A DNA stretch of 58,212 bases, the filler included, from Stramenopiles sp. TOSAG23-6 (taxonomy: Eukaryota), in NCBI GenBank assembly GCA_900128565.1. It is 8 parts of 8 records of this genome, joined end to end, with 100 filler letters (N's around TTAATTAATTAA, not from the genome) between each part and the next. Parts side by side here need not be neighbours in the genome. Positions count along the whole stretch, not along the records: positions 43,784 to 50,960 come from LT636599.1; 7 more parts are not named here. One strand, written 5' to 3'. The notes beneath the pieces are model-generated. The model saw nothing but the letters and a program-made list of their open reading frames with translations. It made no database searches and was not told the origin of the DNA. Shown one piece after another: positions 3,799 through 58,159 of the stretch (positions within the stretch are counted from its first letter, which is position 1; each line of letters opens with the position of its first letter). A program made the position numbers and the translations under genes.

Positions 3799-4434
3799 AA
3801 TTGTGTTTGAATAATGATTAGAACACATCTGACAAAACAAATTGAGTAATGAAAAACATGGATGAACAAATGAACAAATGAACAAATGAACAAAATAATA
3901 TGAGCATTCATGAATCATTATTACATGAACTTTTTTAAATTAAAGAACATTTTAATTACTGTTATTTTATACAACGTAAAAAACAATAATAAATTTATTA
4001 CTGATTTTGATCATTTGCACTATTACAATATTTCAAATACAATCGACAGAAAATAGACAAACCATAGCTTAATTTATTCTGAAAATGTAGAATGTCANTT
4101 AGCTCTTGATTAATTTGCACGCGTTTCGAGATAACTACAACTATTGATGAGGTAGAGAGTAAAATATATGAAAATTTGTATTAAAGTCTGCAGGTTTGTG
4201 CCGTTTATTATTTTTTTNGANGNAAAGAATCGAGAANGACANCATGNANCTGTTAAAAAAAAATACAGCCTACTACTACAGGTACCATACGTACAAAGTA
4301 GGTATATATAGGGTATTACCACACGACACAAACCTTTTAATTTCTTGGATTNAAGGATATATTGGAAAGAAAGCACACAGTTGTATATTGTAATGTAATA
4401 GCAGATACATAGTATTTATAAAAGTAAAGTAGAA

Positions 4435-7208: not shown

Positions 7209-7308
7209 NNNNNNNNNNNNNNNNNNNNNNNNNNNNNNNNNNNNNNNNNNNNTTAATTAATTAANNNNNNNNNNNNNNNNNNNNNNNNNNNNNNNNNNNN
7301 NNNNNNNN
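7209..7308. other. Artificial contig spacer (N-TTAATTAATTAA-N)
   Basis: 100-nt all-frame-stop linker repeated identically seven times. Confidence 0.97.
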
Positions 7309-7363: not shown

Positions 7364-8639
7364 TTGTAGTAGGCATAAAAACAATATACCTACAAGCCTA
7401 CAGTATTGCCAAATATTGACATTCAATGTAGCATGAGTAGTATGTACAAAAATTTCATTAAATACATCATATCCAAGAGGTTTCCAAAAACTTAAAGTGA
7501 ATAAAAACGGCCCAATTAAACAAATATGAGTGATATATTTTGATAATTTTGAATTTGTCGATATTTGAATTCGTTTTTCTTCACTTTGACAAATAGTTGA
7601 AGGTATCAATATTGAAACGTAAGTCCTGGCAAAACGAAATGCAAAGAGAACAGTTACAAAAGACCACATTGAACATAGTAGAGAGACTGTAATAATGTAT
7701 TTTGCAAAAATATTTCAAAAACAATTTATTAGGTACAAAATTTCGTACGAAAACAAAATTCTAATTTGAAAAAAAATAAAACATACATGACATGCCATTT
7801 CAACGTTTCAGTATCGCTCAAATTTTCATGAGTTTTACTTTGTACCATGTATTGTGAAAAAAATGAGAAATTCGAAATTGGTGAAAAAATAGTACGTACG
7901 AAATTTTCTATGAAAAAAAAAATGTAGATAAAACATTTTGTAGGAAAAAAACCTACATTGATGAATTATTCAGAAAGCCATTTATCGCATATAAACTATT
8001 ATGTATATGTCTAGATAGGTCACTGGCGACGTAAAGCAAATTAAATTCGAGAAGATTCGCTGGGGCCACAGCAGATGCAAAAGAAAAGATAAAACCAAAA
8101 CATCCTGCAAAACTACACAAATAAAGGTTTCCTCTCTTTCCACTAAAAATAGGCAAAGAAAGTCTAAGGATAAGATATACACAGTAAACGATGAGAAAGA
8201 ATACAATGAGTATGAATGATTTGCCGTCCCCCTTAATAGTAAAAACATTGTGCAAAATACCGGAAAATAAGGCACACAATAACGTGACAGGGACAAGGTC
8301 AAATAGCAACTGATATTCATCTGAAAAAAATAGTCCATCGACTGTATTGGCATAAATACCTTTACGTTTGTCAAATTTGTAAAGATAGCTTGAATTTTCA
8401 CGAAGCAATTCCGCAACTCTGACAGGCAGTATGCTTTCTATTAGACGTTGCTTTTCGCCAATCGCTTTTTCTCTCTTGTGCACTGGTGGTAACATTTTCT
8501 CTAACTGAGCAGCTGATGGTGGCAAATAAAAACGTAATCCTTGTAAAAGCCAACTGGATAAAGAGAACACTGAAGAGACTTTTTGAAAAATCACCATTGT
8601 AACCGCGAATATAATTAATTCAGGAGGAAATAATGCCAT
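7364..8639 (-). CDS. TMEM161: TMEM161-family membrane protein, 3' partial; exons 8639..7957, 7846..7787, 7694..7364
   Basis: N-terminus MALFPPELIIFAVTMVIFQKVSSVFSLSSWLLQGLRFYLPPS and FFSDEYQLLFD resemble TMEM161; two GT-AT introns join three open exons. Confidence 0.75.
7695..7786 (-). other. Non-canonical GT-AT intron (92 nt, phase 2)
   Basis: GTC AT|GTATGT...TTTTCGTACGAAATTTTGTACCTAAT...GCAAAATACAT|T ATT ACA, in frame with ORF 7349..7669. Confidence 0.85.
7847..7956 (-). other. Non-canonical GT-AT intron (110 nt, phase 2)
   Basis: TCA AT|GTAGGT...CATAGAAAATTTCGTACGTAC...TTCACAATACAT|G GTA CAA, followed by an open 60-nt exon. Confidence 0.8.
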
Positions 8640-15208: not shown

Positions 15209-16087
15209 TCACACATAAAGCATTCTATTATTATCTCGTCTCTTGTTAGGTGTTTCGGACAGGATATTTGAAAAATTCAAAGTCATTTCATCATCAATGG
15301 ATTCATCGGTGGCACTATTATAGTCTTTATAGCCTATGTTATATTCAGTTGAATTATCATGTACTTTCTCAAGTGTCCTCGGATTAAAGTTAGCAGGGTT
15401 AGGGTTATTTACTTTTGTCGAAGGGTTAGGGTTGCTTTGGTTTCTTATATAGAACGTTTTAACTATTTGTTCAAGAACCTCAATTCGTTTATCTTTTATC
15501 TTGAGTAGTTTATTCAATAGTTCTATTTGATTATTATACGCTTTCATTTCAGAGTTTTTTATGTACTGTAAAAATATATGTCAAATTAGAAATTTGTTAG
15601 GTATAAAGTGTAGTACAAAAAAAAAAGTTCGAAATTGATTAGGGTTAGGGTTAACATACATAGAAAGTAATTCACGAGAGTTAGATATGACAGCTTCCTT
15701 TTCTACTATAAGTTCATTATTTGCGTCTCCCAATGCGTTTAATTCAACTACCTTACGCAATAAATTGTGAGTTTCAAAACGTGGATCATTAAGCAGAGAC
15801 AAATTCAGTTCACTCTGAATAAGTTCGATTTGTGTCTGCAGAGATTTAAAATTCTTTTTGCCTATTGGACGTTTTCGCCATTTTTTACTCTTCTGCAATT
15901 CTTTAGATGCCATGTTTGCGTTGTAGCTTATTTGCGCGTGTAGACCAATATACTCAGCCTTTTTCGCACTAATATATGGATTACTTAGTCGTGTTTTCAA
16001 TTTTCTGAGTTGTTTTACGTCTTCAAAAGTCGATCGCACAATCGTTTGTAGTTCTAAAGTTTTGTTCTTTATCTGCATTGACGACAT
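15209..16087 (-). CDS. Hypothetical coiled-coil protein; exons 16087..15660 and 15560..15209
   Basis: Two ORFs joined in frame (ELLS-I-KNSEMKAYNNQ) by removing 15561..15659. Confidence 0.7.
15561..15659 (-). other. Non-canonical GT-AT intron (99 nt, phase 2) containing (AACCCT)2
   Basis: TCT AT|GTATGTTAACCCTAACCCTAA...ATACCTAAC...TTTTTACAGTACAT|A AAA AAC; using the CAG 5 nt upstream gives ATT ACA TAA (stop). Confidence 0.8.
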
Positions 16088-20624: not shown

Positions 20625-21760
20625 TTATTTATTTCTATTTTTCCATTGTTCACACAAAAAACGTTGTTCCAATTTTGTGTCTCTACCATGAAAATGTTTT
20701 CCTCCATCTGACTGATGCTTCAAAATTTCTCTTAATTCATCACAAATCTCCAGAACTGATTTTTTCATAGCTTTAGCATCATTCTGATTACAGTCTAGTA
20801 TAGTTTGTCTAGTTATAGCTCTGAACTCTTGCAAAATTTCTAAAAATTTATTATCCTGTACATCATTCATAATAGAATGATTTGTAGTATTGGTTTCGGA
20901 ATGAACCAATTTATCAAACATATTTGGATCAATAATCTGTATGCCACCAATGCAACGCTCTGATATATATTGTAAAACAATAATTCAAAAATTTGATTCG
21001 TTTTGTTAGGTACAGAATTTTCTATAAAAAAAAAATGAAAATAAAATGAAAACATACAAACCCATAACAGATAATATTGAATGTATCTGTGCTCTTGCTG
21101 CCAAAAGTAATTCTATATTTAAATCTATATTTGAGGCATTTGGCAAATTTGAAACTGTTTTTTCCGTACTTAATTTCGTATCTAACGAATTTCGAATTTC
21201 TTCATGACATTTTATATATTTATGTGTAGTTTTTATTGTATTTCCTAGTATCGACAAAACCTTTGGTGTATCGAAATCGTTTCGAAATGCTTCTTTGATT
21301 TCATTATTTGATGTTGTAATTATCGAAAACAACATATTATCATTGGAACAAAATTGTCTGTTTTGTGGACCATTTCGTTTTTTCTGTTCAAGATGAGCTG
21401 ACTTTATTGTTTCTTCAGTAATATTTAAAAATGTTGTCATCTTTTTTAAAATAATTGAAGCTTCTTTCATACTTTCTATAGAGTAGTGTACATCACTACT
21501 GTATTTATGTATTTTGGAAAAATATTTCAAAAAAAATTCTAAAAAATTTGTTAGGTACAAAATGTCGTACGAAAAATAAATTCGATTTTTTTGTTTGAAA
21601 AAAAAATAAAACATACATGTTGTAAACACCATATGCGAAATGTATCTGCACAAATTTCTTTTGTCTCCGAATCTGAAAATTTGTGTTTTGATTTTAATAA
21701 GTTCTGAATAGTGATAAAATTTTTTAAAGACTTTGACATTTTCATTCCTTTAATATGAAC
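20625..21760 (-). CDS. CARS: Cysteinyl-tRNA synthetase, C-terminal part (5' partial); exons 21760..21617, 21506..21058, 20964..20625
   Basis: VHIKGMKMSKSLKNFITI (KMSKS), spliced FRIWCLQH|KYSSDVHYS..SM.EA, DFDTPKVL, ILSVMGL, FR..TR, ICDELR. Confidence 0.88.
20965..21057 (-). other. Non-canonical GT-AT intron (93 nt, ends TAT, phase 2)
   Basis: GGT TT|GTATGT...AATTCTGTACCTAAC...TTTTACAATATAT|A TCA GAG. Confidence 0.8.
21507..21616 (-). other. Non-canonical GT-AT intron (110 nt, phase 0)
   Basis: CAA CAT|GTATGT...TTTTCGTACGACATTTTGTACCTAAC...CCAAAATACAT|AAA TAC restores the CysRS motif. Confidence 0.9.
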
Positions 21761-24588: not shown

Positions 24589-26092
24589 CATACGAAATTT
24601 CGTATGTAAAAAAAANTTNCAAAAAAAAANGTAANTTTTTTTTTCGAACGAAATTAAAAAAAATAAATATTTCTTTTGTAATGATACACAAACATAAAGT
24701 CACCAAAATGTTAAACATTAAACAAGAAATTTGAAAGAAATCAATATAATGTTTATTAAAAGGTGGACTGTATCTATGTTAGGGTTAGGGTTATTTTTTC
24801 TTATCAAAAATTCTGAAAAAATAAATACAAAGATTTCGTGTAATATTCAAAAAGAATATCGATTTGAAAATTATTTTTTTAAAAAAATAAAAATTTTATG
24901 TTTTTCTGACAATGAACCAATGCTGTTCTATATCCATGCTCAGTATTGATAATAAGCCACATTGTGTCAGTTAAAAATTTTCAACATTTAACGGCTAGAA
25001 AATTCGTTGTCATTGCATCAAGATGAATAATAATATACCTAGGATTAGTTTTTTTTTTTTTTTCATACCTAATTTTGTACCTAACGATTTTTTTTTTTCT
25101 ACGGTTGTTAGGGTTAGGGTTTGATTTTTTTTTTTTTTTTTTTAGGGTTAGGATTTGATTTTTGATACGAAACGATTTGTTTTTTCAAATAAATTTCACA
25201 ATACACATCATCATACGCTATTAGTGTATCAATATTCCCTTCAATGATGCATTTTTGGTTTGTGTGCTGATCATAAAATGTTATTTGTTTAGTATTTGTT
25301 TTTTTTTCATACGCAATGTTGTACCTAACGATTTTTTTTAAAATATGTACAAAATTCTCTATGAAAAAAAACTAACTAGGATATTTCTATTTCAAAGATG
25401 ATGAATTACATCGGTATAGATAAAAAGAAATTTATTGAACAAAACTTCAAGATTGTATAAATAACAACCGTATCTTCAAATTGAAAAAAAAAAAAAAAAA
25501 ATTATGTATTAACTAGGGTTAGGGTTGCTATTCTTTGTCTAATTATAATCAATTGAATTAAAATGGAACAATATACATCATCTATCAAATAAATTTCATT
25601 CATGATATAATCAATCAAATTACTCTTTATACCAATAAAACGACGGAAAAGCATCAATTCAAAGCATTTCAAAAAAAATTATTTTCATACGAAATTTCGT
25701 ACCTAACAAGAAAAAAAAAAATTATCTAACAATTTTTTTTTTTTTAGGGTTAGGGTTAGGAAAATTTGTAACGATTTGTTTTTGATATAAATTTCACAAT
25801 ACACATGATAGAAACTAAGAATGTATCTCAATTATTTTTACAAAATATTATTTTTTTGTAATGTCTTAGGATTGTAATGTATTAGGAAAATGTCAAATTT
25901 TTTTTTTTTTTTTTTTTTGATTTCATACGAAATGTTGTACTTAACGATTTTTGTTTTTTTCGTACGAAATGTTGTACCTAACAATTTTTTTTTTTTTTAG
26001 GGTTAGGGTTAGGAAAAAAAAAAAAAATAATACCATACAAAAACATTTCATTTAACCAATATTTTTTTTTGATTTTTTTTTTCACAATACAT
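24589..26092 (+). repeat. Cluster of intron-family core motifs interleaved with (TTAGGG)2-3 and poly-T
   Basis: Core-motif copies near 24589, 25063, 25308, 25686, 25924 and 25961; TTAGGG tracts near 24779, 25108, 25142, 25514, 25744 and 25997; ends with acceptor TTCACAATACAT at 26092. Confidence 0.65.
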
Positions 26093-26902
26093 GGAATCGT
26101 TTGGCAGAGGGGGGTTGGATTAAAACAATATCAACGGCTTCATCATCAAGTGGAGGGGAAAAAGGAAATCGAATACTTACCACAACAGTAAACCCTAACC
26201 CTAATGATTCTCGAGTTGGAGATAAAAATACATCAAAGTTTGGATGCACTCCATGTGCAGATGAAACTGCCGACTCTAGTCAAAGTCTATTGAAAAAGAA
26301 ATCAATGCGAACCCCTAACCCTAATGATTCGAAATCAACAAATGATCAAAGTATATGGGTGTATCGAGACCCCAAAAAATGTTTAGGTTCCAAACGTAAA
26401 TCAAGTGACTCTTTGAGTAAAGCATTAGCTACGAAAAAAATCGGATCAGGGTTAGGGTTAGGCGAAATTTCTTCTTTAGTAGAAAACCAAGGTTTAAACC
26501 AAGGTTTGGAAAATCAAATACCAACACTTTTCAGACATAGAAGTAACCCAGGACAAAATGTACATATACATCAGAGAGTTCGATCTAGTAGGTTTCCATC
26601 ATAAAATTTCGATTTTTTTTTTGAATTTCAACTTTAATTCTTTTTCTTACGTGCATTTCATACCTAACAAAAATAGTTTTACTAAAAACATATCTTCACA
26701 AACTACATGCAGTATGCCAATTAGACCTGTTTTACAACAAACAATACTAAATACAAACCCTAATCCTAATGCATATCAAAGGCAACACAGGACATCAAGT
26801 GTCTGTAGTCGTGATAGTGAGTGTGCGAGCCCTGGGACAACTGCTCTTGCTTTTATTCTCACAAACATGGCTCAACCTCCAATTCCACCAATGAACATTT
26901 GA
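26093..26902 (+). CDS. Low-complexity hypothetical protein, last two exons (26093..26587, 26709..26902); upstream exons unresolved
   Basis: ORFs 26101..26604 and 26558..26902 are joined in frame by intron 26588..26708. Confidence 0.55.
26588..26708 (+). other. Non-canonical GT-AT intron (121 nt, phase 1)
   Basis: TCT A|GTAGGT...TTTCATACCTAAC...CACAAACTACAT|GC AGT ATG. Confidence 0.72.
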
Positions 26903-43783: not shown

Positions 43784-44217
43784 AAGAAACATCCTTTCAC
43801 TATGATCATTCGCCATTATCAAGTCAACGGAGATTGAAGGATGGGGCGAAAAAAAAAACCAGGTCTCTAACAAACACGCCTGGTTCGAATGACTGCAATA
43901 CATCACAAATGTCAAGCCAACCTTGTGAGAAAGGAGGAGGGTCATTAATGGTGAAACTGTTAAATACTAAAAAACGATTTACTGAGACATGTCAAACTTC
44001 GACATCGACTGCATCATCGACTGCAACACCAACTGCATCACCAATAGCCACACCAACTGCATCACCAATAGCCACACCAACTGCATCACCAACTGCACAA
44101 CCAACAGCTACACCAACTGCACAACCAACTGCACAACCAACAGCCGCACCAACAGCCGCACCGACTGCAACACCAACAGCCGCACCAACAGCCGCACCGA
44201 CTGCAACACCAACTGCA
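43784..44217 (+). repeat. 434-bp direct terminal repeat of this contig, copy 1 (copy 2 at 50527..50960)
   Basis: Appears identical by eye at offset 6743; includes unique sequence plus PT repeats. Confidence 0.9.
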
Positions 44218-45793
44218 GCACCAACAGCCGCACCGACTGCAACACCACCTCCTCCATCAACACCAAAACAGAATCATAAAAATCATATATTAAATGAGAC
44301 CCCAGAAAAAGAAGAAGATAATTTAAATTCATTGCGATATCAACTACAAGAAATCAAAACTTTAGCAGCAGAACAAAGTAAACATCTACAAAACACGAAA
44401 TCAGATAGAAATTTGTTATTGGAAGATAATGAAGCTTTAGTTGAACAACTAAGTCGTTTACAGATATCCGTATGTATGTTTTATTTATTTATTTATTTTT
44501 TTTCGTTTAAAAAAAAAAAAAAAAATGTTGTACCTAACAAATGTTTTAGAATTTTGTTTTGAAATATTTTTCCAAAATACATGTACAGCGAAAGATCGAA
44601 GTGCTCAAAAAAAACACGAATTTCATTCACTTAAAAAAAAAAGTAGAAACAGAGACAAAAATTTGGGAAATATGTATGTATTTATTATTCATTTTGTTTT
44701 TAAACAATTGAAATTTTGTATAAAAATTATAAAAATTTCCCTTTTATTCTTCATATGAAAATTCCGTACGTACAACCCCATCATGAATGACGAATGAATT
44801 TGTGAAAACTCAAAACAAAATTCAAAATTGACATATTTTTATAACATTTCATGGAAATTGCTCTCATGGAGTTTCAAATGCTACATCGAGAAGCAGTTGT
44901 AAAGCATCAATCTGAAATAAAAAATATGCAAAGTCAAATTGAATCAAAGACAAATTTAATTATTGAACTTCAAAATGAAATTAAGACCTTTAAAAAACCG
45001 ATGATGGCAAAAATTCAAAGTGTTTCAAATGCTGCTAGTCATAGATTTTTTGGCTCACCCGCCATAGTATGTTTATATTTTTTAAAATTGATTTTTTTTT
45101 TTTGGTTTGTTAGGTACAAAATTTCGTATGAAAAAATATTTTTTAAAATTGATTTTTTTTTTTGGTTTGTTAGTTTACAACATACTATTCAATACAATTC
45201 TGAACAACATCCTCTTTTGTTTTGTTTTTACTATTTTTTGTTGTACTATTTGTTTTTACTATAATGAAAAATGTGTACTAATTAGCCAACAAAAACAACA
45301 TGAAACATATTTCTTCACAATACTTGCTAAACCAATTCGAGGGAAAGACACAATGACAATCAAGACAGTAGATGGAACTGTACCAATGACTAAAATTATA
45401 AAAAAACGTACATTTGGAGATATTTTTTCTAGTGCTTTAAGTCGAGTGACGAAACGAGTCAGCGATCATTTGGTAAAATCACCGGAAAATAAAGAAAAAA
45501 AAATGAATACTGAACAAAATTATCAAAAAGATAATCAACCTCCTCCGGTACCAAACAATAAACCAATAATTGATGATGAGTATAAGAAATATCTAGATGA
45601 TAATAGTAGTATACCTGATGAGAGAGATAATTTTTGTACACCAAGTCAGGATTTTGTGAAAGATGTACATGACATTATACCTCCTTTTCCTGAAGAACAA
45701 TCTGATTTTGTGAAAGATGTACATGACAGTATACCTCCTTTTCCTGAAGAACAATCTGATATTCCTTCATTTCGTGTAAAAGTGAGTAAATGA
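43784..45793 (+). CDS. PT-repeat plus coiled-coil protein, 5' partial, with three family introns
   Basis: TPTA/APTA repeats then a coiled coil; approximate exons ..44473, 44583..44673, 44850/44853..45066, 45326..45793; frame of the second exon is ambiguous. Confidence 0.55.
44474..44582 (+). other. Non-canonical GT-AT intron (donor at 44474 or 44470)
   Basis: GTATGT...TGTTGTACCTAAC...GAAATATTTTTCCAAAATACAT|. Confidence 0.78.
44674..44852 (+). other. Probable family intron (acceptor 44852 CAT or 44849 TTT)
   Basis: AT|GTATGT...CATATGAAAATTCCGTACGTAC...GACATATTTTTATAACATTTCAT|G GAA; no AG anywhere near the acceptor. Confidence 0.6.
45067..45325 (+). other. Non-canonical GT-TT intron (259 nt, phase 0) with an inverted core motif inside
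   Basis: GCC ATA|GTATGT...TTCTTCACAATACTT|GCT AAA CCA. Confidence 0.62.
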
Positions 45794-45932
45794 GATGTTT
45801 TTTTTATTATATAGACTTTGTTTTTATTATATAGAGATTATTTTTTGTTTTCATATATATAATAAACAAAATGTTTATAATTTTGCTTAACATAGAAAAT
45901 ATATATAATAAAAAACAATGAAAACAAAATGT

Positions 45933-48379
45933 TTATAATTTTGTTTGACGTAGATATTTTCTTTGGTAAAGCATAATAAAGTATACGACAATCATAACAC
46001 AAGAGACATCAATCAGAATAAACCATTGTAAAGGATTCCAATTGTGTTTTTCAATATTCAATGTTTTTACGAGGATAGATGAAACACTGCCTCGAATGGA
46101 AGTTCCTACTGTATTTTCTCAATATTTTGGTTTTACATTTGTTAGGTACGGAATTTTTATACAAAAAAAAAAAAAAATGAAATGAATGATGAAAATTTAC
46201 ATTGAGACATTGACAAAAATATCGCATAAAAAACTGATATTGGAATACTTTGTGTTTCATTACTATTTGTTTTTGCATCGCTACAAGGTAAAATTCCATC
46301 ATTGAATATTCGATTTGTATCCAAATTATAATTCAAAAGCAAAGCTTCATTATTATAATTATTATAATTATCATTATTATCATTATTATCATTATTATAA
46401 TTATCATTATTATCATTATTATAATTACTATTGATCATATTATTATAATTACTATTGGTTATATTATTATCATTATTATAATTATTATTATTATCAGTAT
46501 TATAATTACTATTAGTAGTAGTATCATTCTTTTCATTGTCGTTTGTTGACATTTTATTCGACCATATAGTAGCAAACACCACAGTTGGAACGAGAGCCAA
46601 TTGAGAAGCAACACTACATATCCAACTAACTCCAATCAAATACGATTCAACACTAATAAAAAATCTACGAAATTTTTCACTTGATGTAATTGCTGGAATG
46701 TACAATAGCCGAAGACTTGAAACAATAATTGATGTTATCCCTATAAATAAAAGTGTTGTTTGACTATCCATTTTTTGAGAACATTTGTTTTGAAGAAATA
46801 TTTCAATTCTTTATTTTTGAAAAATGTAGAATATAAAAACAATTAAAAATCGTCGGAATAGGTATGAAACATAAACACAAANAAAAAATAAAAAAAAACA
46901 CAAATAAAAATAAAAAAAAACGTACAGGTATTCATAAATATGATAAAAATAAAAAAAAACACAAATAAAAAAAAACGTACATGTATTCATAAATATAATA
47001 CTTCCAAGCATTGCACCAAGAGAATTAGCCACGCCAAGTTTCTGTATTGAACAAGTTGAATTAGCAGATGCCCAAAGAGAGTCCACAAAGTAAGAATATA
47101 AAGTATCACTTGACGAAGGAGTTGCATTAATTAATATTAAGACTATAGACGGAAATGTTAGTTGCCGAATTAAAATTTTAAAATTGTGTAGAAAAGAAAA
47201 CACTTTTGGTTGATTTATAGTATTATTATTATTATGAATAGTATCATGTGCTATAGTATTATTATTATGAAGAGTATCATGTGCTATAGTATTATTATTA
47301 TTATGAATAGTATCATGTGCTATAGTATTATTATTATTATGAAGAGTATCATGTGCTATAGTATTGTAATCATCCAACAATGCTATTGTATTTGTATTTG
47401 TTTTTAGAGGTGTAGATAGTGTAGATAAAACAGCACTATCACTTTTTCCAAAAGCAAATTGTAGTTTTCTATATATATATCTCCATGAACAAAATGTTGA
47501 AAGAATAATAATAAAACCGAGTACAAATAGTACAATGAAAAGACCTAAAATATACAAATGATAAAATTGGCCTTTTGTTCCTTGTGATAAAATTCCAAAA
47601 TTTACAACAAGTAAAATAACTTCTACAATAAATACAAAGACTCCAACACAACCAGCTATTTTTTTTCGATCGATTTGATTAAGATGCGAACCATCATTGT
47701 ATATATTTTCATTCGTTTTCACATTATTGTATATATTTTCATTCGTTTTCAAATTGTGTATAGATAATTCTGGGAGATATGATGCTACATATGTAGATAT
47801 AAGTGGTATGAGTGCAGTATATGCAATAAATTGACGAGGTTGAACATTATCACTACAATATAATGGTAACATTGCTAGTGTACAAGTAACTGTTCCGAAC
47901 GATCGAATGCTCGAAGCTCCACTTTGCAAGACAGTAGCACTATATGAATCACTTATATTGTTTTTAATTTTACTATGTCTAGATACAATATCAACTAATG
48001 TTGCATCAAGTAACAGTTCTGAAAAAGCATTAAATGTTTCATTAACGACTTTCACGACAAAAGCACTACAAATAGACGTGACAAAAAAACCTGTAAGTGC
48101 GTAACAAATACAAGAACCAAAACTGCAGATTATAATATACGATTTACGGTGGTATCCAAAAATAGGAAAACGATGAGACAGCCATGCATAGAATGGTTTT
48201 AGTGACCATGGAATCAGTCCTGCAGTATAATATAAAACGACAACTTCAGGAGACATGGACAACTCTTTATTGATCCAATGTGTATAGGCAGACATTGGGA
48301 ATGCTAGTTCCCAAGTATTCAGTAAATACAGAAGGGCTAAGGGTAAAGGAATGAGCGATGCCCCATAAAAACATTTCAT
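45933..48379 (-). CDS. BT1 folate/biopterin transporter family (MFS); exons 48379..46981, 46782..46201, 46108..45933
   Basis: IPWSLKPFYAWLS..FPIFGYHRKSY, AFSELLLDATLV, NATPS; the spliced C-terminus FYAIFLSMSQ-L-GTSIRGSVSSILVKTLNI...W..L..FILI is not in the ORF track. Confidence 0.85.
46109..46200 (-). other. Canonical GT-AG member of the same intron family (92 nt, phase 1)
   Basis: CAA T|GTAAAT...AAAAATTCCGTACCTAAC...GAGAAAATACAG|TA GGA. Confidence 0.82.
46783..46980 (-). other. Non-canonical GT-AT intron (198 nt, ends AAT, phase 1)
   Basis: ACA T|GTACGT...TTTCATACCTA...GAAATATTTCTTCAAAACAAAT|GT TCT CAA AAA ATG. Confidence 0.75.
47213..47367 (-). repeat. Coding minisatellite (N)nTIAHDT[L/I]H x4 in a BT1 loop
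   Basis: 36-39-bp tandem units. Confidence 0.85.
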
Positions 48380-49019
48380 GGGTTAAGAATTGTAATATTG
48401 ATGACTGCTGCTTGCACAAAATTGCAAGGTACAATAACATAAATTATGTGTTATTTTAGCTCAGCTAGTGTTGGCCTACTGTTGACATCATTAGCTATTT
48501 ATCCAAGGTAGCAATTCGAAGAAAATACTGACATATTTCGTGTTTGTACCGTTTACCCGGTTTACCAAACAAGGACTTTGTTTTTTATTTAAATTCATTA
48601 TCTACAGTCTTACTATGATTCAGCAACATAGAATGATATATGTTTTATTGTATATATAATGAGTATATAATTGTATGAAATGCAATGTCAATATTTTCAA
48701 ACTTTATATCTGAGATCGTTAAAAATATCTAACGAATTTCGTGTTCAAAAATTTTTTTTTTTATTCAAATTTGAATTTGAATTTGAATTCAAATTTTTTT
48801 TAAAAAAATTAGGTTTTTAAAAAAAAAATTTGAATCCCAAGTGTCGAACGAAGTTTCGCGCCTCCCCCTACGTATGCGTTGTGTATATAAGTAATTTGAA
48901 TTTTTGCATCGAAAGTTCTTAATAATTTCCTCAAGTCTTCTTCGGTAAGTGCAATACTTATTCAAAAAAAAAAGGATTTATTTGTATTACCTAAACAAGT
49001 ATACTATTTTAAAAGAAAT

Positions 49020-50960
49020 ATGTTCGTTTTTGGATTTTCTAAACACCATTCGAAAAAGAGAAATTACACAACGGACCATGAAACAAAGGCAACCAAACAA
49101 GTAAACCCTATTGCTATTGGTATAGCTTCAAAAGATAAAGAACCGAAATCAAATGTGACGCTACCAGTAACCCAAAATGAAAAATCATCGTCAGATTGTC
49201 CGCAAGATCTGAGTAAAGCATCTACTTGTATACTATGGTCAATATTCAAGGATGCCATCGGGCCAACGAACGCTGTACGCGCATTTGATGTAATACTTGT
49301 ATTTTCAGAAATGTTGATATATGCTCAATTTTGGCCTGTTGCTATTATTTTTGCTAATTTGCTACACAAAGAATTTGCTAGTGGAAACTTGGAATTCCAA
49401 GGTCCAGTAAGAACGACACCTCTCATTGCATACACTTTTCTGTTTTTATCTGCAAATGTTATCTTACAAGTTCACTTTCAATACTGGTCATATCAACGTG
49501 GACAATGCTTTAAGAGAATCGCCAAGCCAATTATTTTATATGAAATCGACGCGTCAGATGAGGAACTTTTGATGTCAGCAACTGATGATATTAATAAAAC
49601 ACAACACACGTGTTTTTGTCTATTTCCACATTGTGTACAATCTGTTGTTGTAATTATAACCTTGTTGATTTTTGTGTATTTTCGAAACTGGGAATTTATG
49701 CTATATCTTTTATGTTTAGTAATTATTATGATTGTTCTTTCAATTCTATCAACAAGAAGTACAATGAAACATAATGAAGAACTTTTGAGGTTAGTATCAA
49801 GTATGAATGGTGAAAATGAAACTATGTATGGTGAAAATGAAACTATGAATGCTGAAAATGAAACTATCAATGTAGAAAATATGTCACCTGATGAGCAGTA
49901 CTTTTTATCATTGGCAACGCAACAGCATCCAAACATATATCAACTTTTGATATCTGTAGTTGAAGTTGTATCCTTGCCTGTATCATTTCACGTAACTGAG
50001 TATATAATTGACGATAATGAGAGGATGTTTGACTCTATGCTTGAAGATATACTTTGTTATGGCGCTGTTATCTATAATGCAAATGCATTTACTACATCAT
50101 TGGATAGAATTATCAAGAATTCAATTGTAATGCGGCGGGTTCGAAAATTATATCAAAAAAGTAAAGACAAAGTGCAAAATATTCCAAAGAATGATAAAAC
50201 AACTTGTAAGAAACAGATTATTTACACTTTTGTAATTTTAATATTACTCGTTCCTGTGGGAGCTTTGGTATACTACATCTTGAGTCTTCATATATGTGAT
50301 GAGAATATCAAAGTTAAATGCACATATGAAAGTATTGATGAAAGTAAGATTGTAAATACTAGGTGTGATTCTATAACAGTTACTCAAAAGTTTAATATTG
50401 ACAATACTCTATGCCAACTGGATTTAAGTCAATCAGAGATACTTGAAAAATGTAGAGAAAGCTGTAACGTAACAGTTGACACAAAAGTTATTGCAGCTGT
50501 TGAAAATACCATTGGTTTAAAACTACAAGAAACATCCTTTCACTATGATCATTCGCCATTATCAAGTCAACGGAGATTGAAGGATGGGGCGAAAAAAAAA
50601 ACCAGGTCTCTAACAAACACGCCTGGTTCGAATGACTGCAATACATCACAAATGTCAAGCCAACCTTGTGAGAAAGGAGGAGGGTCATTAATGGTGAAAC
50701 TGTTAAATACTAAAAAACGATTTACTGAGACATGTCAAACTTCGACATCGACTGCATCATCGACTGCAACACCAACTGCATCACCAATAGCCACACCAAC
50801 TGCATCACCAATAGCCACACCAACTGCATCACCAACTGCACAACCAACAGCTACACCAACTGCACAACCAACTGCACAACCAACAGCCGCACCAACAGCC
50901 GCACCGACTGCAACACCAACAGCCGCACCAACAGCCGCACCGACTGCAACACCAACTGCA
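49020..50960 (+). CDS. Multi-pass membrane protein with a Cys-containing region and PT repeats, 3' partial (may continue at 44218 if the contig is circular or tandem)
   Basis: Several hydrophobic segments, then RRL and TPTA repeats; the last 434 nt equal the contig start. Confidence 0.7.
50527..50960 (+). repeat. 434-bp direct terminal repeat, copy 2
   Basis: Matches 43784..44217. Confidence 0.9.
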
Positions 50961-56480: not shown

Positions 56481-58159
56481 ATCATTAATTTCAGATATCA
56501 AAGAAACACAAAATAGGCATTCAAAGGCTAAGCAATACTCTACTATACATTTGAACGAAGAAATTTCAATTGAAAAAATGTTGAAAAAAGCTAAATCTGA
56601 GGTTTGGCAAGAGGGCTATGACCCCTGGGCTTTTTTTCCACGTGATTTTGAGCGTTTTCTTGTTACAGGAAATTTCCCTTCTTGGAAGACTCTTACGGCC
56701 ACTACGCCTCCAATTGCAAATAAAAGCTTTGACGTTGATATGTGTTTTATTATAGGCTGTGGTCGTTCTGGAACAACTCTTTTAGCTTCATTGTACGTTG
56801 TCCACTTTCAATTTCAATTTTTTTACATTTTCGTACGAAATTTCATACCTAACAAAAAAAATCAAAAAAAAAATATATTTTTTCACAATGCTTACTATCG
56901 ATGTGGAAAAAAGTTCTTTTTATAAATGAACCAAGACTTCTTTGGCTCTCTGCAGGCTTCCCAGAAATAGATGTATGGTCAACTTTATCAAACAAAAGAC
57001 GAGGTCGCTTGCAATTTTTGCCATGTTTAACATCAAGAAATCTTGTTGCAATTGATAAGCTAAAAATGATATATCAAAATGTTGTGACTGCTGCGAACTC
57101 CAACCATAACCCCAACCCTAGTAATGACTCACCAGTGAGAAGGATGATTGTAGAAAAATTCCCTGAGCATTCCTTTCGAGTGCCGTTTCTGTCAAAATGT
57201 TTCCCTCAAGGATATGTCATCGTTATGCTAATTTTACCTATTTTTTTGTTTTTACCGAATTGTTTTTTCGTTTTTTCATACGAAAATTTGTACCTAACAA
57301 AAAAATCAAATTTGACATATTTTTTCACAATGTATACGGTTTATTCATATAATCAGATCTCCCATGAAGGTTATTCGTTCAATATCTAAATTTTCATCAT
57401 TTGCCTGGTATGTAGGTTTTTTCAAAATTTCATTTTTTGGTAGTATATTTCGTACCTGACAAGAAAAATCAAATTTTTAAAATTTTCTTCAAATATCTTT
57501 TTTTTACATTTCAAAATTTCATTTTTTTTTCGCCTAAGAATTTTCTATACATATCAAATTGTAAATGTAATATATTTTTCACAACGCATGGAGCGACAAA
57601 CAAAAAGTGGCAAGAATTGCGTCTTCTAGCACTGACTTTTGGTTTCTCTGAATCAGATGTATGTTTTAGGGTTAGGGTTATTTTCGATTTTTTTTTCGTA
57701 CGAAATTTTGTACCTAACGAAGATACATTTTTTTTAAACGAAAAAAAAAAATATTTTCCTAAAATAAATCTCTCTCGCCTTGAATCTGAAGCTTCGAATA
57801 GAGGTAAGGCAGAGGTCGAATGGACCGTATCGATACTCTCAATTTTGCGACAGTTCAACCAGTTCAACGTCATACAAAATGAAAACTCTAACCCTACATA
57901 TTTTTTTTTGAAATACGAAGATTTAATTACCAAACCTATAGAGACTATGAACAAAGTTGCTACATTTTTAGGCTTGCTAAAGCCTAATGAGGAAATTATT
58001 CATCAAATTCAAGCCTTTATTTATAACCCAAATTCTTCAAATACAAAAATGAAACAAACAATCCCTGAAGGTTCAGTGTGTCATATATACAAGAATATAT
58101 ACAAGAGAGAGTGGCATCGATTAACGTTACAAGTGATGAAAACGTTTGGATATTGTTGA
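56386..58159 (+). CDS. P-loop sulfotransferase; exons 56386(or 56344)..56792, 56894..57211, 57336..57411, 57590..57658, 57770..58159
   Basis: Spliced GCGRSGTTLLAS-L-LSMWKKVLFINEP, VEKFP, FPQ-G-RFIHIIRSP..VIRS, LKYEDLITKP..TM.KV..FLGL, M..FGY. Confidence 0.85.
56793..56893 (+). other. Non-canonical GT-TT intron (101 nt, phase 2)
   Basis: TCA TT|GTACGT...TTTTCGTACGAAATTTCATACCTAAC...TTCACAATGCTT|A CTA TCG; the intron contains no AG. Confidence 0.82.
57212..57335 (+). other. Probable AT-AT intron (124 nt, donor ATATGT, phase 2)
   Basis: CAA GG|ATATGT...TTTTCATACGAAAATTTGTACCTAAC...TTCACAATGTAT|A CGG gives FPQGRFIHIIRSP; exact donor uncertain. Confidence 0.65.
57412..57589 (+). other. Non-canonical GT-AT intron (178 nt, phase 0)
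   Basis: TGG TAT|GTAGGT...TTTCGTACCTGAC...TTCACAACGCAT|GGA GCG. Confidence 0.75.
57659..57769 (+). other. Non-canonical GT-AT intron (111 nt, ends AAT, phase 0) with (TTAGGG)2
   Basis: TCA GAT|GTATGTTTTAGGGTTAGGGTT...TTTCGTACGAAATTTTGTACCTAAC...CCTAAAATAAAT|CTC TCT. Confidence 0.78.

Follow-up and report, generated by a model that had tools for sequence, protein, structure and literature searches.

A GT-AG intron in a BT1-family gene of Stramenopiles sp. TOSAG23-6 resembles a repeated intron family that otherwise ends in AT

Introduction

AG is the near-universal end of spliceosomal introns, and its G underpins models of exon ligation. In the tunicate Fritillaria borealis, Henriet and colleagues reportedly described, in 2019, numerous non-GT-AG introns of the major (U2) type, tied to small transposons and with ends as diverse as AG-AC, and an adapted major spliceosome is said to have been proposed for them. 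Introner elements are transposon-like repeats that generate introns in Micromonas, Aureococcus, Symbiodinium, Chrysochromulina and others (Gozashti et al. 2022, PMC9860276; PMC11282704), and invasive non-canonical intronic elements have been described in Amoebophrya (Farhat et al. 2021, PMC7789003). GT-AT and AT-AA are known as rare spliced subtypes of minor (U12-type) introns (10.1101/2022.09.24.509304). Here, we analysed a stretch of 58,212 nucleotides (nt), filler included, from Stramenopiles sp. TOSAG23-6 (assembly GCA_900128565.1; eight parts of eight records joined end to end), hereafter called the window, and in particular a 92-nt intron at 46109..46200 on the minus strand, in a BT1-family gene carried by the part that comes from LT636599.1 (the target intron).

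We consider it probable that the target intron belongs, as an old copy that has diverged, to a family of short, mobile-looking introns whose other members (its siblings) end in AT, and that it is removed as 92 nt, most likely as a GT..AG intron of the U2 type. We infer both its exact register and the use of a single spliceosome for the two endings.

Results

The target intron and its excision from the BT1-like gene

Read on the minus strand (46200..46109), the target intron opens with GTAAATTTTC and closes with AAAAATTCCGTACCTAACAAATGTAAAACCAAAATATTGAGAAAATACAG. Its donor, GTAAAT (46195..46200), directly follows an exonic 'at'; compared with the 14 other complete members of the family, which differ from GTATGT at no or one position, it carries two mismatches and is the weakest donor, as the original prediction had it. 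The family motif AATTCCGTACCTAAC, including the presumed branch site CTAAC, is matched exactly at 46141..46155 (minus strand), 32 nt from the 3' end. The end itself was also correctly predicted to be different, being AAAATACAG where the siblings have AAAATACAT; the terminal AG, within CAG, at 46109..46110 lies where the siblings carry AT in end-anchored alignments. AAAATACAG occurs twice in the window, in the target intron and at 4260 on the plus strand, where it belongs to no family member. With GTAAAT at its start, CTAAC 32 nt from its end and a final CAG, the target shows the features of the major type and is, by its sequence, a canonical GT-AG intron.

Joining 46201 to 46108 yields ...FLSMSQ-L-GTSIRG... 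in an open frame of 718 amino acids and opens a final transmembrane exon, in agreement with the original prediction, while keeping the intron in stops translation after 16 codons. Across this junction, 36 stretches of BT1 homologues (domain E<=0.01) align without gaps from Y652 past L687, with exactly one residue between Q660 and G662. The columns before the junction include Y652 (29/36), L656 (29/36) and S657 (28/36), and those after it G662 (34/36), S/T664 (32/36) and G667 (24/36). Moreover, a profile of 35 homologue C-terminal segments found the open reading frame (ORF) 45936-46118 (minus strand) at E=2.6e-13, with a match that begins at the G of GTSIRG and a runner-up among 1239 ORFs at 0.13; this match is mildly favoured by the choice of the segments, which were picked via alignment to the BT1-like gene itself. 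As judged from frame and homologues, the target intron is real and exactly 92 nt must be removed. An earlier GAG acceptor, 9 nt upstream of the target's AG, was ruled out by an immediate stop codon.

The first long exon of the gene (46981..48379, minus strand) was recognised by its homologues and by a match to Pfam BT1 (PF03092; E=2.9e-17; score 62.9 bits, cut-off 22) that covers only profile positions 9-231 of 432; taken by themselves, exons 2 and 3 gave no Pfam match. In a representative library, the first exon has 692 homologues at E<=1e-3, the best being P0001 (2e-39, 42% identity). The middle exon (46201..46782, minus strand) was hit in tblastn by P0001 and P0003, and an RNA contig covers 46615-46780 of it. 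The last exon (45933..46108, minus strand), found with the homologue profile, runs from 2 nt of codon 661 through the stop codon and encodes a conserved G-x-S-x-x-G block and the final membrane helix, with the hydrophobic stretch WFILIDVSCVMIVVYFIMLY. The C-terminal half of the protein can be aligned to the BT1 family, and the 36 homologue stretches span each junction. Word-indexed protein searches with exon 1, with its residues 1-210 and with the last exon gave no hits, and so no close orthologue or RNA-derived fragment that would reveal residue 661.

The BT1-like protein also holds low-complexity sequence, in a window of ~34% G+C by base counts. The middle exon encodes an Asn-rich insert in a loop (46300-46560, minus strand; ~80 residues of N/D/Y repeats), and exon 1 a second repeat, NTIAHDT[LI]HNNNN x4, at 47220-47370.

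A neighbouring AT-ending intron is absent from one RNA contig

The upstream intron of the BT1-like gene (46783..46980, minus strand; 198 nt, GTACGT...GAAATATTTCTTCAAAACAAAT) also belongs to the family. To compare the gene with RNA, we used four runs (X1-X4, seawater metatranscriptomes) over the N-free region 44600-50960, with four family introns at 56793-57769 lying outside it. In each run, one or two contigs matched the window at 99% or more, and one joint was found among the four. This joint is in X2 record 11, a poly(A) RNA-Seq contig of 201 nt with 0 mismatches, which covers 166 nt over 46615-46780, continues with 35 nt from 46979 and skips 198 nt. The ambiguity of the joint is 4 by recount and 3 by the mapping tool; the five registers compatible with it are AC..GT, TA..TG, GT..AT, TG..AA and AT..AA, none of which has an AG end or is AT..AC. 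The AT-ending neighbour in the same gene is removed from RNA without any AG.

In the GT..AT register, this intron starts with GTACGT and ends exactly with GAAATATTTCTTCAAAACAAAT, which agrees with the family 3' consensus at 18 of 22 positions. Its splice product, FMNT-C-SQKMDSQ..., is in frame, and the two best homologues align through it. A canonical in-frame AG (TTATTTATAG) is available 42 nt downstream of the AT end (46741..46742, minus strand), and an acceptor there would give a 240-nt GT..AG intron, also in frame. It is unused, because the RNA contig reads the region as exon; its use would remove 14 codons for which the two best homologues have counterpart residues. Within the intron region, a 56-nt tandem duplication (46925-46995, minus strand) repeats the last 15 exon bases and the donor (tatttatgaataca/ctGTACGTTTTTTTTT...), and in the RNA contig the donor in use is the first (46980) and not the duplicate (46925).

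The family in the window and beyond

With up to two mismatches allowed, the window contains 13 occurrences of AATTCCGTACCTAAC where 0.05 would be expected, and none of 100 shuffles reached 13. The family comprises 15 complete members, the target included, and six three-prime halves, most of which are cut by assembly gaps. Among these 21 3' ends, 20 are AT and the single AG is that of the target intron. Members are about 90-120 nt long and are laid out as a GTATGT-type donor, a T-rich stretch, a CGTACG palindrome, the branch motif AAATTYYGTACCTAAC, an A/T-rich tail and ...AAAATAC followed by AT. The donor is GTATGT in eight complete members, GTAGGT in three, GTACGT in three and GTAAAT in one, and 24-69 nt separate the branch motif from the 3' end.

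The end AAAATACAT occurs ten times in the window, seven of them at family 3' ends. A 22-mer 3' consensus (up to four mismatches) also occurs ten times, always at family ends, compared with 0-1 in 20 shuffles, and six copies are identical across it. The consensus has inverted ends, GTATKTTTT pairing with AAAATAC, and in 8 of the 14 siblings the dinucleotide ahead of the donor is 'at', like the final AT. AGs inside the tail are skipped in 7 of the 14. At the family-aligned ends, 12 of the 15 complete members connect the longest flanking frames. By these counts, the family is a genuine repeat.

Scanning metagenomes with GAAATTYYGTACCTAAC returned at least 115 loci. Among the matches listed, a single one is a true family copy (L087:262-365, minus strand, E=7.4e-10); on its 3.2-kb contig it reads ...aacat / GTATGT...CGTACGAAATTTCGTACCTAAC...CACAATACAT / gg, and is thus AT-flanked and AT-ending. 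The remaining matches listed have E-values of 1e-5 or worse, or no score, and look like chance.

Further observations concern the setting of the copies. The repeat evidently breaks the assembly, because copies are cut at scaffold joins: such joins (44 N + TTAATTAATTAA + 44 N) lie at 7209, 14512, 21815, 36398 and 43684, and cut at least six copies (7363-, 14662+, 21761-, 21980+, 36345- and 43645-). The translation of 43784-44250 repeats that of ~50490-50960 (plus strand; ETSFHYDHSPLSS...TPTA repeats), each beside a gap; either the end of the piece 43784-50960 overlaps its own start, or pieces were joined out of order. The copy at 45067-45186 (plus strand) is antisense to the surrounding plus-strand gene; its plus strand starts with GTATGT too, because the element ends are inverted repeats, and ends ...GTTTGTTAGTTTACAACATAC. 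A sulfotransferase-like gene (P-loop GCGRSGTTLL) holds four family introns in 1 kb, including those at 56793-56889, 57263-57331 and 57408-57509 (plus strand), and two of the four end ...TTTTTTCACAAT. For the host protein of copies 22369 and 22851, reading of the sequence revealed no obvious conserved family. Telomere-like TTAGGG repeats stand in or beside family copies at 25050-26100, 57665-57680 and 15640-15655, and TTAGGG-type repeats also occur near the metagenome copy. At 25-26 kb, a cluster of degenerate copies accompanies (TTAGGG)n; TTAGGGTTAGGG follows the donor at 57659 and CCCTAACCCTAA that at 15659.

Relationship of the target intron to the family

A hidden Markov model (HMM) of 12 siblings, built without the target, matched the target at 46178-46134 (E=5.8e-5), and global alignments of the target to 13 siblings scored z=2.0 to 5.7 above shuffles. 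In end-anchored alignments, the last G of the target stands opposite the last T of the siblings, so the claim that their terminal T sits at the position of the canonical G holds. The target has CTAACAAATGT in common with copy 44474, 8 of the 9 bases of the AAAATACAT end, and the AAAATACA end in common with siblings; its 32-nt tail is that of copies 2408 and 22851, and its length of 92 nt that of the copy at 7786. By reading of the sequence, its ends pair at 6 of 9 positions; an 'at' stands ahead of its donor, but its end reads AG. Taken together, the target looks like an old, diverged copy of the family, from which we infer its descent.

Splice register and alternative explanations

Several observations weigh against reading the target as a diverged copy that is cut at GT..AG, and they are given here along with the alternatives that they favour. 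The original prediction held that an AG-ending member fixes the splice register. When both cuts of the target are moved 2 nt 5', the intron becomes AT..AC, is also 92 nt long and in frame, and the joint changes from ...TCTCAAT / TAGGAACT to ...TCTCA / AGTAGGAACT, with L661 to V (Q-V-G) as the only difference in the protein. The homologues leave L and V undecided, because column 661 carries both (F13, L8, I5, A3 and V3 among 36). Both registers keep Q660 and G662; the earlier inference from the AG is therefore weaker than stated, and the AG of the target does not by itself fix the register. The siblings would then be AT..AC or AT..AA, and the G of the target an exonic L-to-V change. Apart from the in-frame cut, AT stands before the donor in 9 of the 15 complete members, and the X2 joint permits AT..AA; since AT flanks both ends of the upstream intron, the joint does not separate GT..AT from AT..AA. 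Both AT-AA and GT-AT are among the rare ends of minor introns (10.1101/2022.09.24.509304). We nevertheless regard an AT-first register as improbable. GT occupies the aligned first position in all 15 complete members, where GTATGT, GTACGT and GTAGGT are standard major-type donors, and six of the 15 carry tt, tc, aa, ta, tt or tg before GT (copies 22369, 22851 and 26588 are among those without AT) and would start without a known donor. Minor introns have the donor consensus [AG]TATCCTT and the branch motif TCCTTAAC at ~10-26 nt from the 3' end. That donor consensus is absent from all 15 complete members, in none of which the sequence after an AT-first cut, ATGTATGT, matches the minor-intron ATATCCTT; the branch motif of the family is TACCTAAC instead of TCCTTAAC, and its tail of 24-69 nt (32 in the target) extends beyond the minor-intron range. 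An Rfam search of the window gave 0 matches. GT..AG is the sole register of the target with both a standard donor and a standard acceptor, and the GT-first register is better supported, through the 15 GT starts and the RNA contig of the neighbouring intron. The predicted preference for GT-AT over AT-AC stands on these two grounds, and not on the AG of the target.

A different concern is that the target could be an independent, ordinary GT-AG intron which shares with the siblings only strong splicing signals (a T-rich tract, an extended branch motif and ACA before the cut), so that its AG would be uninformative on the family ends. The sibling HMM aligns only the central 45 nt of the target, the branch motif included, and this motif could be a shared splicing signal and not proof of common descent. 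In addition, the target has a degenerate palindrome (TGTATA), most of the tail is not conserved, and the 22-mer 3' consensus is matched at 14/22 positions by manual count. Long uniform branch-site and 3' signals are described for intron-poor eukaryotes in the available text of PMC2483917; in the window, motif and family are indistinguishable, because no motif-free intron was found there. On the other hand, the exact 15-nt motif exceeds the usual branch-site signal, the target shares with siblings CTAACAAATGT, the AAAATACA end, the length, the tail and the 'at' before the donor, and its end-to-end alignments reach the z of 5.7 given above, which makes an independent origin unlikely in our judgement. 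More radically, the AT-ending elements might be unspliced, the X2 contig deriving from a strain without the element or from excision at the DNA level, and the host genes being disrupted or read through. The joint is a single contig at depth 2.3, and spliced RNA and the transcript of an allele without the element give the same sequence, as an empty site with one AT is identical to the spliced product. Moreover, the RNA runs hold other contigs with 1-2 differences from the window per 100-260 nt, which points to several strains. Against this, the contig, which stems from a poly(A) RNA library, is identical to the window at 201/201 places. Of the AT-ending complete copies, 11 of 14 lie between long frames that are joined only on removal of the element, donor and branch motif of the elements are in sense orientation, and a BT1 protein that is conserved elsewhere along its length would be interrupted by the element at 46980..46783; we find this explanation hardly credible. 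Two further points must be set against the diverged-copy reading. Three of the 15 complete members (21057, 56793 and 57408) are out of frame at the aligned ends: at 21057 the frame fits with an ATAT end 4 nt further on, at 56793 it is off by one base, which may reflect either a different cut or an assembly error, and at 57408 the upstream exon is short and uncertain. In addition, no contig in X1-X4 covers the target junction, and with a depth of 0 in the bin 46091-46303 these runs are silent on expression and splicing there.

Discussion

We hypothesize that the target intron, which interrupts the BT1-family gene just ahead of the last membrane helix, would be cut out by the major (U2-type) spliceosome, with branching at CTAAC and a cut after the CAG 32 nt downstream, and that the siblings would be cut at the same relative place, ending in AT. 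A strong donor and a long branch motif may allow the first step to proceed without AG. At exon ligation, the A at -2 would be retained while the last base could be G or T, and the 3' site would be the ...ACA[T/G] end supplied by the element itself, 24-69 nt past the branch motif. In the target, a T-to-G change of the last base would most likely have produced the textbook CAG and left the mRNA unchanged. The proposals for the first step and for ligation draw on yeast-type splicing and on ligation-stage structures.

That one machinery accepts both ends, as originally suggested, is plausible, because both forms share the donor type and the branch motif and occur in the same gene. The accompanying idea that AG-ending members tolerate weaker donors would come from a single case. 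Whether the major spliceosome can dispense with G as the last intron base, cutting after ...A-C/A-A-[T or G] and passing over earlier and downstream AGs, seems to us an evenly balanced question. If it can, a single T-to-G change would decide whether a copy ends in AT or in AG and would leave the mRNA as it is, and the family would be a natural AT/AG allele series for studying the choice of the 3' splice site and whether ligation can do without the contact of first G and last G. Many introns would then be lacking from the gene models of such organisms, since gene finders take an AG end for granted, and a direct route would open to the study of newly inserted mobile introns that turn ordinary.

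More generally, a repeat family cut at GT..AT would show a major-type spliceosome running on another last base, and a GT..AG copy in the same gene as an RNA-supported AT-ending copy would raise the significance of such a finding. The target is the less surprising half of this pair, because it is canonical by sequence; it serves as a within-family control, and the RNA-supported excision without AG beside it is the more important result.

Our literature search, which covered main texts as distinct from supplements, found no description of a GT-AT introner-like family, and the available portion of a study on gene prediction in uncultured stramenopiles (PMC5778133) does not mention splice-site ends. 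As described in the available text on Amoebophrya, its elements resemble the present ones in being repeated intronic elements of a marine protist with non-canonical splice ends, a likeness by description only. The GT-AT and AT-AA subtypes of minor introns have the same terminal dinucleotides as those considered here, but the donor consensus, the branch motif and the spacing are different; moreover, these subtypes are a handful of conserved introns in animals and plants, whereas the introns of the window form a repeat family.

Introners are the nearest known kind, as judged from sequence. Like introners, the family consists of many near-identical short copies in unrelated genes, nearly all in sense orientation, with what look like short inverted ends in the consensus (GTATKTTTT / AAAATAC) and an apparent duplication of AT at the borders of most young copies; excision restores the frame and leaves the mRNA length unchanged. 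Unlike introners, which are GY..AG with rare GC and GA donors in the available parts of PMC9860276 and PMC11282704, the family ends in AT at 20 of its 21 3' ends.

Numerous introns with non-GT-AG ends are what this genome would share with Fritillaria, going by what is reported of the tunicate. In the present family the donor remains GT and the difference is confined to the last base, T in place of G, and the host is a protist with a yeast-like signal set of GTATGT and CTAAC.

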